DNA of 61,203 nt, taken from positions 1 through 61,203 of the forward strand of contig JAISKK010000012.1 of assembly GCA_031260965.1 (NCBI GenBank). The letters run 5' to 3'. Made by a program: the position numbers and the translations under genes. Below are positions 25,981-60,559 of the stretch, piece by piece (positions within the stretch are counted from its first letter, which is position 1; each line of letters starts with the position of its first letter). The DNA is from Desulfovibrio sp. GTDB taxonomy: Bacteria > Desulfobacterota > Desulfovibrionia > Desulfovibrionales > Desulfovibrionaceae. Under the pieces are notes generated by a model. The model was not told the DNA's origin. It saw nothing but the letters and a program-made list of their open reading frames with translations, and did no database searches.

Positions 25981-26526
25981 ATGATGAAAAAGAGCACTAC
26001 CGTAATGATGGTTATGGGTCTGGTTTTTGTAACCTCTTTCACTTTTGCGGGTTCCGGTCTGGCGCAAGGTCCTGGTGGTCGTGGATGCGGTGGCGGGTCA
26101 CATGGTTTTATGGAGCGCGCGCCCCGGGCGACTCCTGAACAAGCGGCCAGAGCGCAAAAATTGCGTGATTCGTATTTCCAATCCACAAACACCTTGCGGG
26201 GACAGCTTCACGAAAAAAAAGCCGTGCTGCGCGCCCTGATGGCGGCGCTTACGCCTGACAAGGCGAAGATCGAGGCCACATCGCAGGAACTCGGCGCTTT
26301 ACGGGGCAAACTGAATGCCGAGCGCGCCGAGTTTATGGCTCAGTTGCGTAAGGAAGGGATAGCCGGGTTGAATTATTTTGCTCCACGACAGATGAACAGG
26401 CAGGGCGGCAAGCAGGGGCAAAGTCGGCACATGGGAAACGGGCCTCACAACGAATCCTTCCAGCGTGACCATTCCAATCAGCATGACGACCACACTGTTT
26501 CAGCCGTCACGCGTGATGATTCATAA
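25981..26526 (+). CDS. zraP: Periplasmic Spy/CpxP/ZraP-family metal-responsive chaperone
   Basis: Signal peptide, Gly-rich segment, TPEQ..LRGQL..K..L.ALM....PD.AKI...SQEL..LR, His-rich tail; divergent from zraSR. Confidence 0.8.
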   Translation: MMKKSTTVMMVMGLVFVTSFTFAGSGLAQGPGGRGCGGGSHGFMERAPRATPEQAARAQKLRDSYFQSTNTLRGQLHEKKAVLRALMAALTPDKAKIEATSQELGALRGKLNAERAEFMAQLRKEGIAGLNYFAPRQMNRQGGKQGQSRHMGNGPHNESFQRDHSNQHDDHTVSAVTRDDS

Positions 26527-27028
26527 GGCGAAGATGCGCCGGGGGTCTCTCAAGCGTAACATGCTCTGATCCTTGGCGTGTCCTGCCGATAAAGGTAAAA
26601 ATGACAGCCCTCGTTTTTTTTGAAACGGGGGCTGTTTGCCCATTTTCAAGGCGTGACAATTTCATTGCCTTATTCAGCGTTATCGTTATGCTCCATGACC
26701 TGCCAATGCCCGCCTTTTTTCGGGCCTGCACGCCGCAAGCGGCGAAGACGCTTCGCAACATGATCCTCTGTTTGCAGTTACCTGGGGATAATTATAAATC
26801 GGTTAAACCACCGGGTGTGAGAGCTTGTCCGGTAGGGCATCAGGGAGGAACCACGAGGTTCCCCCTGCTTGAATTGCTAAAGATGCCAACGATGTAAATG
26901 GTTCATGCCGCTTGCCAGAATGGGCGCAATATTTTATCATTGCGACAGGGGAAACTTTAAGGTGTAAAATTTCCGGGCAATCCTTCTAAGGGGAGGGTTT
27001 TTGCTATGGGTGAGCAAGGATTTGGGAA

Positions 27029-28705
27029 ATGGCCATGAATAATAATAATATTATCGAAGTACACAGTAATGAAGGCATTTTTTGCGTCAGTCCGGCTGGA
27101 ACAATCCAGCCGGGAACGAATACAGTATTCGGCGAGCCGGGGGATGAAGTCCAGATCATCAGGTTTAATCTTGAAGAATGGAAGTTTTTTCACAGGCAGG
27201 AAGAATTGCCGCCAAGCCTTGATATTCCGGATTTGGGCTACAATTTTGTAAGACTGGATACCGGCCAGCTCGGGTTCAGGAAACCCGATGCCGGCTGGCG
27301 GGAGCTTCATTACAAAGACCGGCACAAAAACCAGGGCAGCGCGTTAATTGTCCCTCCGGATGCGTCCCTGTGGGAGATGGCGAAGTACGGAAATCTGCCT
27401 GAAGGATTTGAACAGTGGGAATTACTGGCGGTGGACATCTGGACGGTGGCGCATATCGCGGCAAGATACGGGCGTCTGCCTGTCGATTTTGATCAGTGGG
27501 AACTGACAGCCGAGAACGGCGATACCGTAGCGCATATCGCGGCAAGATATGAGCATTTGCCTAAAGGATTCAGCCGCTGGGATCTGACCTGCAAAGATGG
27601 CTGGACCGTGGCGCATGAAGCGGTACAATTCGGGTATCTTCCGGCAGTGTTCAAGCAATGGAATCTGGTGGACTATAAGGGCTGGTCCGTGGCTCATGTC
27701 GCTGCGGAATTTGGACATCTGCCGAATAACTTCGAGCAATGGGGAATGAGAAGCAACAATGGCGAGACGGTTGCGCATGTGGCGGCCAAACATGGAAATT
27801 TGCCGGAGGGATTATACAGTTGGGATTTGACTGCCCGGGCAGAATCCGCAGACATCAATTTTGATTTTGCAGCTGACGCCGACGAATGGGAGGAATGGCT
27901 GGACGGACACTGCACCTCGCGGGCGCATTTTGCCGCCCACGTGGGGAAGTTGCCGATTGATTTTGACCGGTGGAATATATGCAACGATATATTTTGGACT
28001 GTGGCGCATGAAGCTGTCAAAAAACAATGGTTGCCGAGCTGGTTTGACCAATGGGAATTGGCGAATAAAAGTGGTTGGACCGTGGCCCACGAAGCGGCCA
28101 AAAATGGTTTTTTGCCGGAAGGATTCAGTGATTGGAGCCTGGCAGATAAAGAAGGTTGGACCGTGGCCCACGAAGCGGCTAAAAATGGGCATTTACCGGA
28201 ATGGTTCACCCAGTGGACACTGGCAGACAAAAGTGGTTGTATTGTTGCCCATTTTGCGGGCAGAAGCGGATGTCTGCCCGCAGATTTCACACAATGGGGG
28301 CTGACGGACGAAGACGGTCAGACCGTAGCGCATTGGGCGGCTGAATTCGACCATCTACCGGCAAATTTTAACCAGTGGGATCTGGCTGACGACATGGCAA
28401 GAACCGTGGCCCATGTGGTGGTCAAACTGAGACAACTCCCGGCGGATTTTACCCAATGGACCATGGCTGACAATAACGGCTGGTCGGTGGCGCATCAGGC
28501 CGCCGCATTTGGGCATCTGCCGGAGGGCTTCGACCAGTGGGGAATAAAAAATAAAGACGGTTGGACAGTGGCCCATGCGGCGGCAAGCGCAAAGCATCTG
28601 CCGGATGGCTTTGATCAGTGGCGCCTGGCGAACAGAAACGGATGGACGGTGGCGGACGAGGCCAACAGGGGTCATCTCCCTGGGACTCAGCAAGGCAAAG
28701 ATTGA
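27029..28705 (+). CDS. Hypothetical protein with about 14 tandem 27-aa ankyrin-like repeats (TVAHxAAxxGxLPxxFxQWxLxxxxGW)
   Basis: Repeat visible in the translation; 81-bp DNA periodicity (GGTTGGACCGTGGCCCACGAAGCGGC at 28073 and 28154). Confidence 0.85.
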   Translation: MAMNNNNIIEVHSNEGIFCVSPAGTIQPGTNTVFGEPGDEVQIIRFNLEEWKFFHRQEELPPSLDIPDLGYNFVRLDTGQLGFRKPDAGWRELHYKDRHKNQGSALIVPPDASLWEMAKYGNLPEGFEQWELLAVDIWTVAHIAARYGRLPVDFDQWELTAENGDTVAHIAARYEHLPKGFSRWDLTCKDGWTVAHEAVQFGYLPAVFKQWNLVDYKGWSVAHVAAEFGHLPNNFEQWGMRSNNGETVAHVAAKHGNLPEGLYSWDLTARAESADINFDFAADADEWEEWLDGHCTSRAHFAAHVGKLPIDFDRWNICNDIFWTVAHEAVKKQWLPSWFDQWELANKSGWTVAHEAAKNGFLPEGFSDWSLADKEGWTVAHEAAKNGHLPEWFTQWTLADKSGCIVAHFAGRSGCLPADFTQWGLTDEDGQTVAHWAAEFDHLPANFNQWDLADDMARTVAHVVVKLRQLPADFTQWTMADNNGWSVAHQAAAFGHLPEGFDQWGIKNKDGWTVAHAAASAKHLPDGFDQWRLANRNGWTVADEANRGHLPGTQQGKD

Positions 28706-28809: not shown

Positions 28810-29763
28810 TCAACCTATGCCTTCATAGAGTATGGAGGAGAGGTAACGTTCGCCGGCATCGGGGAGAACCACCACAATGGTTTTGCCCGCGAATTCCGGC
28901 AGAAGGGCGAGGCGGGCGGCGACAGCTCCGACCGCGCCGGAGGAGATGCCGGCCAGGATGCCTTCCTCTTTGGCCAGGCGTCTTGCGAACTCGACAGCCT
29001 CGTCATTGTCCGCCGTCTCCACGCGGTCCACCAGGGAGAGGTCCAGAGTGGCGGGAATAAAGCCCGCTCCGATGCCCTGAATTTTGTGCGGGCCGGGCTG
29101 GATGGGCTGACCTGCCAGGTGCTGGCTGATCACCGGGCTGGTCTTCGGCTCCACTGCCACCGCAGTGATGGCCTTGCCTTTGGTTTTTTTGATGTAGCGG
29201 GCTATGCCGCTGATCGTTCCGCCTGTGCCCACGCCGCTGACAATGACGTCAACGCCGCCGTCTGTGTCCGTCCAGATTTCCGGGCCGGTGGTTTTTTCAT
29301 GGATAGCCGGGTTGGCCGGGTTTTTGAACTGTTGCGGGATAAAATAGCGGGCCGGGTCATTGCCGGCTATTTCCTCCGCCTTGCGGATGGCTCCCGGCAT
29401 ACCCTCGGCGCCGGGAGTCAGAATCAGATTCGCCCCGAGCATGGCCAGGACCCGGCGGCGTTCCAGACTCATGGTTTCGGGCATGGTCAGGGTAAGTTCA
29501 TAACCGCGCGCGGCGGCCACAAAGGCCAGGGCTATGCCCGTGTTGCCGCTGGTGGGCTCTATGATCTTCACGCCGGGTTTTAAAAGCCCGCGTTCCTCCG
29601 CATCCCAGATCATGGCCGCGCCGATGCGGCATTTGACGGAATAGGAAGGGTTACGACCTTCGATTTTGGCCAGGACAGTGGCTTTTGACCCGGCCACCCT
29701 GTTCAGTTTGACCAATGGAGTATGGCCGATGGATCGTGAATTGTCAGGATAGATGGTGGACAT
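28810..29763 (-). CDS. cysK: Cysteine synthase A
   Basis: [48 protein letters not shown]. Confidence 0.96.
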
Positions 29764-29826
29764 TTTTTCTCCTCGCAAAGTCTTTGCTTTGCCTGTTTGA
29801 AACAGTTAACGGTTCAGATGTTGCTG

Positions 29827-60186: not shown

Positions 60187-60559
60187 ACAGGGGACCTCCG
60201 TTGGAATTATTGAGCATAGAAAATGATGGCGCGTCAAGATTTTATCCGTTTCTCGCCCGCGACTATTTGGCGGCAAGGATTTACAGGAAATCCTTACAAG
60301 CATTTCATATGTTAAATGATCTAAAAGTCTCCCTCCCTCGCAAAGTCCCCGGCTATGGCACGGGTGAAACACAGTGCTTGCCATGCCTCTCCTGGAACAG
60401 CAAAAAAAATCTGCATCCATTCTGAAAAAATATCTTGACTTATTTTTGAGCAGGCTTTAGATATGTCGTCATATGTATGATGATATTTCCAATGATGTAC
60501 GATGATTTGTCCAATAAGGGTTTTACCCACAACCGATACCAATATTAAAGGGGAAAGCT

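Follow-up and report, generated by a model that had tools for sequence, protein, structure and literature searches.

The protein P0001, encoded by a single-copy gene in a 61,203-nt stretch of Desulfovibrio sp. DNA (the whole stretch analysed, referred to here as the window), is built from 27-residue units, each of which is, with high probability, an ankyrin repeat minus six residues of its second helix, stacked as a solenoid with one helix per unit. The family to which it belongs probably works in the manner of ankyrin binders but is not a canonical member of that group. For the reading as a whole, in which P0001 is a chromosomally captured copy of a protein binder that diversifies, acts in the cytoplasm and belongs to mobile elements, we estimate a probability of about one half.

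Organization of the Repeat Gene

Scanning P0001 for the 'LP' anchor of the repeat located 16 anchors, spaced by 27 amino acids with a single exception at the insert (Table 1), and these correspond to the degenerate first unit, 14 units carrying the AH motif and the truncated last unit. Self-identity of the protein at a lag of 27 is 0.416, against a shuffle maximum of 0.113 (1000 shuffles, lags 20–39). Both the count of about 14 tandem 27-residue units given in the original prediction and the two imperfect units that it placed at the ends are thereby borne out. The period is exactly 27, as was also claimed, but the array is not uninterrupted, since it is broken by one acidic insert and the first 106 amino acids are non-repeat. 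At the DNA level, the unit copies are old (median pair identity of 56%), and the two units earlier described as near-identical, which start at 28064 and 28145, are the closest pair, but at only 79% identity over 81 nt, the near-identity being that of a 34-of-35-nt patch at their core; judging from the sequence, this pair appears to be the most recent duplication in the array.

Table 1. Coordinates of the repeat gene, its parts and neighbours (window positions), and of the pDF308 region (positions of that record).
Feature	Position	Strand	Remarks
ZraP-like gene, upstream neighbour	25981..26526	+	PF13801
Two sigma-70-like promoter matches upstream of the repeat gene	26912-26940, 26942-26970	+	Consensus matches only
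ORF P0001	27029..28705	+	558 aa: N-terminal region, then 27-aa mini-ankyrin array
N-terminal region, aa 1-106	27029..27346	+	GC 0.485; neither relatives nor fold detected
Degenerate first unit (N-cap)	27347..27427	+	Model helix at aa 114-120
First array, 5 full 27-aa units	27428..27832	+	pLDDT 93-97 in blocks covering aa 141-260
23-aa acidic insert, interrupting the period	27833..27901	+	50-aa spacing; low pLDDT
Second array, 9 units, the first of them degenerate	27902..28630	+	pLDDT 91-98 in blocks covering aa 321-540
Truncated last unit (C-cap) and short tail	28631..28702	+	Repeat-anchor positions
CysK-like gene, convergent downstream neighbour	28810..29778	-	PF00291 (PALP); syntenic with metC and rrf2 in relatives
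L004, part of pDF308	130001-180000		15 ORFs with sister 27-aa subtype; mostly annotated hypothetical, one histidine-triad protein

The N-terminal region has no homologue among proteins of 60–193 aa and no relative among the proteins collected from related loci, in the Atlas or in Pfam, and its single-sequence model, with a pLDDT of 37, was unusable. A hydropathy scan, which is cruder than SignalP, gave a 19-residue maximum of 0.89 and revealed neither a hydrophobic stretch anywhere in P0001 nor an N-terminal signal peptide, in agreement with the earlier claim that no signal peptide is present.

Ankyrin Ancestry and Predicted Fold

The canonical ankyrin unit, as outlined in PMC3932732, comprises 33 residues folded into two antiparallel helices. 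Set beside canonical ankyrins (PF00023, PF12796 and PF13637; 1n0r, the DARPins and 5y4d), P0001 has the turn, the TPLH-type motif with its His, helix 1 and the following Gly in collinear order, with its variable residues at groove positions; it also passes Pfam cut-offs and forms a stacked solenoid in its model. Two defining features are nevertheless lacking, namely the 33-residue period and, according to the model, the two helices per unit, with Leu-Pro-x-x-Phe-x-x-Trp replacing six residues of helix 2. The unit is thus ankyrin-derived and yet non-canonical, because it has 27 rather than 33 residues and one predicted helix rather than two.

Five Pfam Ank models score above their curated cut-offs on P0001 (Ank_4, 82.5; Ank_2, 63.2; Ank_3, 51.5; Ank_5, 42.4; and Ank, 26.7 bits), but these scores are sums of part-unit matches, the best stretches being partial (positions 2–15 of 33 for Ank), and a full-length match to the 33-residue models, which would speak against a distinct family, was looked for and not obtained. 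P0001 was not picked up by a genome-wide Ank_2 search, and NCBIfam and PHROGs hold no meaningful family for it. The best sequence match in the PDB is the consensus ankyrin 1n0r, whose alignment is broken only once, by a gap of six residues in helix 2. When 300 sampled family units were combined into a profile, it matched 18 canonical 33-aa units from P0132 with a probability of 96–98%, the first 16 columns being collinear and followed by six gap columns.

The AlphaFold model of P0001 (58 aligned repeat sequences) has a pLDDT above 90 across most of both arrays and shows, with high pLDDT, one helix of 6–8 residues per unit, a count predicted from this alignment, in which short 3-10 turns may go undisplayed. 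In both the PDB and BFVD, the top Foldseek rows list only ankyrins or proteins of ankyrin type; their TM-scores do not exceed 0.51, and their rmsd values are 5–20 Å over the whole chain, figures that again set P0001 apart from the canonical fold. Ankyrin-repeat chains also lead a second fold search, VIA (6mol, Z 16.4, rmsd 5.3, 363 aligned; ankyrin-B 5y4d, Z 16.2, rmsd 4.3, 392 aligned). The 1n0r gap, the profile comparison and the model together support the original prediction of a distinct, compact ankyrin-derived family without the canonical second helix, the core of which is probably replaced, on the evidence of the model, by the conserved Phe and Trp of the shortened segment. The His and Trp 'ladders' that had been proposed as a special feature are not supported by this comparison, since the repeat His aligns with the ankyrin motif His and the repeat Trp with a hydrophobic loop position.

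Family Size, Variants and Relation to Known Proteins

P0001 had been taken for an orphan but belongs to a wide family, with 122 relatives of similar length and with 1030, 618 and 134 cluster representatives at E ≤ 1e-3, E ≤ 1e-10 and E ≤ 1e-30, respectively, the cluster counts also taking in ankyrins of other forms (P0132 and P0178, for example). The 27-residue period dominates, accounting for 2006 of 2597 spacings in 392 distinct family proteins (54 in 165 cases, 28 in 99 and 33 in two). Repeat forms of 30–31 aa, between 33 and 27 in length, are found in P0178, P0107, P0108, P0112, P0114 and P0119, and a sister subtype, also of 27 aa but differing in the second half of the unit, occupies 15 ORFs within 50 kb of pDF308, a megaplasmid of a vent bacterium, and 30–31 places in the whole record.

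Most ORFs at family loci are repeat-only, with up to 49 units, and other relatives carry a fused relaxase, LPD7, LPD23, HEPN/HepT, polyphosphate kinase, HTH or PIN-like domain or a TPR region. The LPD domains are found in P0080 and P0098 and not in P0001. In two close records (P0077 and L191:1-1947, minus strand) the array precedes polyphosphate kinase as an in-frame N-terminal fusion; the TPR-like N-terminal region of L190:196-3366 (minus strand) was judged by eye; and at L075:11888-16786 (minus strand) a TPR-CHAT gene adjoins an array of paralogues. A Lys-Met-Gly-type C-terminal tail is common to 20 of 215 proteins with unrelated N-termini (22 pattern hits, of which two were dropped as chance); its bearers include P0011, P0020, P0054 and P0063, several of them from 250–310-kb contigs with multiple paralogues, and P0001 is not among them.

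Besides canonical ankyrins, three sets of known proteins come closest to the family. The ANKp proteins of sponge 'Ankyphages' are, like family relatives, ankyrin-type proteins encoded by phages, and the survey that describes them relied on the Pfam Ank models that the P0001 family also triggers (bioRxiv 10.1101/608950). It reports signal peptides in two ANKp proteins and action on eukaryotic cells, whereas the P0001 family is mostly without signal peptides and occurs in free-living hosts as well. A second likeness is to polyvalent proteins with LPD domains, which have been tied to the early phase in which phages and conjugative elements invade (PMC5512222, whose main text, online files aside, does not mention ankyrins): some relatives of P0001 are fused to LPD7, LPD23 or relaxase, and some lie beside transfer genes, although P0001 has no LPD domain and most family members consist of repeats only. 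Third, the pDF308 paralogues of Deferribacter desulfuricans, which RefSeq labels 'hypothetical' or 'ankyrin repeat domain-containing', share the 27-aa register and the first half of the unit, with 40 of 46 spacings equal to 27 and 40% identity to the window's array, but have a different second half; the accessible part of the D. desulfuricans genome paper does not describe these repeats. No published description of the 27-aa repeat was found in the open literature, subscription journals and supplements aside, nor is one given in the accessible parts of PMC12483993, PMC2885270 and PMC7608387.

By current definition an ankyrin repeat has 33 residues and two helices. A natural, stable one-helix form of 27 residues, accompanied by 30-residue intermediates and a second 27-residue subtype, would reveal to what extent the fold can be shortened and would provide a smaller binder scaffold. 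Because Pfam either overlooks these proteins or calls them ordinary ankyrins, tallies of 'ankyrins' that serve as indicators of symbiosis in gut bacteria and phages may take in a family whose role is a different one, tied to mobile elements.

A Candidate Binding Surface

Across 1942 distinct units, entropy exceeds 3 bits at unit positions 2, 3, 5, 10, 13, 14, 16, 19 and 23. Positions 2, 3, 5, 13 and 14 are those that we take to form the ankyrin turn/helix-1 groove randomised in DARPins, position 10 being added in this analysis, and positions 16, 19 and 23 equal some groove positions in entropy. When recent unit pairs within genes were compared by simple counting (69 or 155 recently duplicated pairs, chosen on framework synonymous sites), dN/dS was 1.10–1.88 at groove positions versus 0.70–1.03 at seven other variable positions. 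The groove value was the higher in 1000 of 1000 bootstraps under all six settings, and its interval excluded 1 in five of the six. Non-anchor framework positions had a pN of 0.00–0.15, against 0.2–0.55 for the groove. It is important to stress that a dN/dS above 1 at the groove does not prove positive selection, because codon bias can lower dS and so inflate both classes, and non-groove positions are also near 1; what can safely be said is that change at the groove is 1.6–1.8 times faster than the other variable positions. By entropy and by this faster change, the variable positions do look like the diversifying binding surface that had been suggested for them.

Distribution and Genomic Contexts of Relatives

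Genomes and viral contigs were scanned with a degenerate DNA motif, and the genome-scan counts are lower bounds. The family is patchily spread: in the genus it occurs in 2 of 25 genomes, in relatives in 2 of 41, and across the class in 9 of 301 genomes. In another order, 17 of 50 genomes have matches, and five repeat-rich ones give 42–163 each, these being matches and not gene counts. Among the loci collected, the largest expansions comprise at least 31, 20, 13 and 12 distinct ORFs per genome, the richest genome holding 391 units in its at least 31 ORFs. One of the repeat-rich genomes has PF09820 (AAA-ATPase-like) genes that recur beside its repeat genes (L019, L070 and L077), perhaps a second expanded family. 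Other holders include Desulfacinum, Desulfomicrobium, Acidithiobacillus, Thauera and Gammaproteobacteria, and some family copies carry stops.

Relatives occur in phages and prophages, on a megaplasmid and next to genes for relaxases or coupling proteins. In IMG/VR, six family stretches lie on five contigs, and the neighbours, in the four contigs scanned (all but L007), are terminase, portal, RecT, phiKZ-like or baseplate genes; in the ESM Atlas, viral members make up 94% of the nearest cluster (0.98). Of 29 cellular contigs scanned, a subset of many more collected and with marker calls limited to the flanks read, eight carry clear mobile markers in the form of integrase, Prim-Pol, VRR-NUC, Bro-N, lysozyme, relaxase or coupling-protein genes (L011, L018, L026, L040, L060, L071, L184 and L186), and several of these hold arrays of 3–7 paralogues; among the remaining 21, L039 shows weak prophage-like features, and the other 20 appear to be chromosomal, their neighbours being unrelated. 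On L184, a relaxase gene is followed directly by three paralogues, with a two-partner secretion pair about 7 kb away (one case), and the Acidithiobacillus copy is flanked by an integrase gene and a coupling-protein gene. A SMODS nucleotidyltransferase and SLATT pair, CBASS-like, lies at L185:16512-17887, about 20 kb from relaxase-linked copies. Queries with P0001 and P0100 gave no match among 50,697 records of cultured phages, and only one matching record was found among 72,556 plasmids, results that tell against a purely phage-based account. A related-locus search returned no viral contig for P0001 and one 5.6-kb metagenome contig for P0054.

Proposed Role and Competing Explanations

According to the reading that we prefer, P0001 would be a non-catalytic, cytoplasmic solenoid that shows a row of variable residues, the groove would bind another protein, presumably of bacterial origin, and duplication of units together with substitution would retune it. 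At home on phages and plasmids, such binders would block or divert proteins of the bacterial host, while chromosomal copies, P0001 among them, would have been captured from a phage or plasmid and sometimes amplified. We infer protein binding, the absence of catalysis, a role in the conflict between mobile elements and bacteria, and chromosomal capture. The original prediction had proposed a diversifying binder that might be a host-directed effector, an anti-phage sensor or a metal/ligand scaffold; the variable surface argues for the binder, whereas the spread of the family favours mobile elements and the metal option is unsupported.

An effector acting on eukaryotic cells, either gut flagellates or the insect, in the manner of symbiont ankyrins and phage ANKp, is unlikely, although part of the evidence leans its way. 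The DNA of the window is present in a termite-gut metagenome, possibly its source, and the genomes with the biggest expansions carry the names Gx485 and Roe453, which are those of lower-termite metagenomes (PMC11707648), while ankyrins are reported to be enriched in symbionts (PMC3932732). TssC, of the type VI secretion system (T6SS), is present in the window genome and in all four repeat-rich genomes tested, but the link is unspecific and these genes do not discriminate, because TssC also occurs in 11 of 25 genus genomes, against 2 of 25 for the repeat. In the window genome itself, four TssC matches on three contigs (G000:C113, C156 and C32) indicate up to three type VI secretion clusters. 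VirB4 was unmatched in five of five genomes, and a hydrophobic N-terminus is found in only 4 of 345 family proteins, P0001 not being one of them. Genome size runs opposite to the symbiont trend: in the repeat-rich order, only 1 of 11 genomes of up to 2.9 Mb was matched (genome completeness not given), and the richest are 4.6–6.7 Mb, with three of 6.8–7.1 Mb lacking matches. The family is also found in Acidithiobacillus, Desulfacinum and a vent megaplasmid, and its spread as a whole suggests a link to mobile elements more than an effector aimed at eukaryotes.

Improbable too is a benefit to the bacterium, in which P0001 would be an orphan immunity protein against the toxins of rivals, or a sensor or blocker of phage proteins, and the expansions a defensive repertoire. 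Ankyrin-type immunity proteins exist, and a cytoplasmic protein with a variable groove, tandem arrays of paralogues, a T6SS-rich community and relatives fused to HEPN/HepT, a PIN-like domain or a TPR region would all be in keeping with such a role, which may suit domesticated copies even if their origin is mobile. However, P0001 has no effector domain, and neither VgrG, Rhs, PAAR nor a known toxin family was found among 270 neighbouring ORFs (112 + 103 + 55; E ≤ 1e-6 or 1e-5). Orphan immunity genes would not be expected to have such neighbours.

That the His and Trp rows bind metals, nucleotides or nucleic acid instead of proteins is very unlikely. His occurs in 93% of units and Trp in all of them (Trp formed part of the search anchor), a ZraP-like gene adjoins, and the ankyrin domain of RNase L, one of the fold matches, binds 2-5A. 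The His, however, is accounted for by its alignment with the ankyrin motif His, which has a structural role; exposed positions vary freely, with no second ligand residue conserved among them, no zinc-related neighbour recurs at the loci of relatives, and no evidence was found for the metal binding once suggested.

Least credible is a functionless passenger that grows by slippage and drifts, as the patchy, random chromosomal sites, the stops in some copies and the near-neutral evolution at non-groove variable positions might suggest, since frames stay open over as many as 49 units, framework positions change less than those of the groove, and a second study's contigs carry the gene at the same site.

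If mobile-element binding is the right reading, the family supplies candidates, open to testing, for a class of counter-defence proteins of phages and plasmids. A bolder version, which we offer tentatively and think doubtful, is that one-helix 'mini-ankyrins' form a natural library, borne by phages and conjugative elements, whose members disarm bacterial proteins, some of them sent through the conjugation channel by the C-terminal tail, and that termite-gut bacteria have domesticated and amplified this library into dozens of genes with hundreds of shuffled units. The shared Lys-Met-Gly-type tail as a transfer signal is a guess. Such a library, if real, would be the prokaryotic counterpart of the designed ankyrin libraries, on a smaller fold.

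The Chromosomal Copy in the Window

With relatives in phages, the window copy itself sits among housekeeping genes, next to zraP and cysK. Its GC content of 0.532 is slightly below that of the genome (0.557) and of ten neighbours (0.551–0.629), so the gene is AT-richer, as had been noted, but the difference is mild, and its GC3 of 0.567 is close to the 0.571 of zraP; the N-terminal 330 nt have a GC content of 0.485. The search for sigma-70-like promoters gave seven matches in the region versus 2.5 expected. The order cysK-metC-rrf2 is conserved in relatives, and in eight of eight of their cysK regions (one with only 1 kb downstream) both the repeat gene and zraP are absent downstream of cysK. 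That the repeat gene was inserted alone between zraP and cysK is therefore not shown: because none of the eight regions carries either gene there, the repeat gene could have come in together with the zra genes or on its own. There is no tRNA inside the window and no recognisable flanking repeat around the gene, which, like the housekeeping neighbours, weighs against the preferred reading. The other copy in the genus sits at a different place, where a gene close by has a GroEL-like tail.

The stretch is contained in two runs, each of a different study, one of them labelled termite gut metagenome, and no RNA dataset is among those listed as containing it. The contigs of the second study span most of the gene, with gaps inside, and one of them links its 3′ part to cysK; the gene is thus not an assembly artefact. 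Two differences from the window are listed for contigs of run X1, at 28357 and 28362, and are read as synonymous third positions, or one of them as residue-changing, in which case it falls at a variable position of the repeat. Elsewhere in the window, tandem repeats of 9 nt × 4 and 22 nt × 2 occur at 2755-2790 and 60473-60515, respectively.
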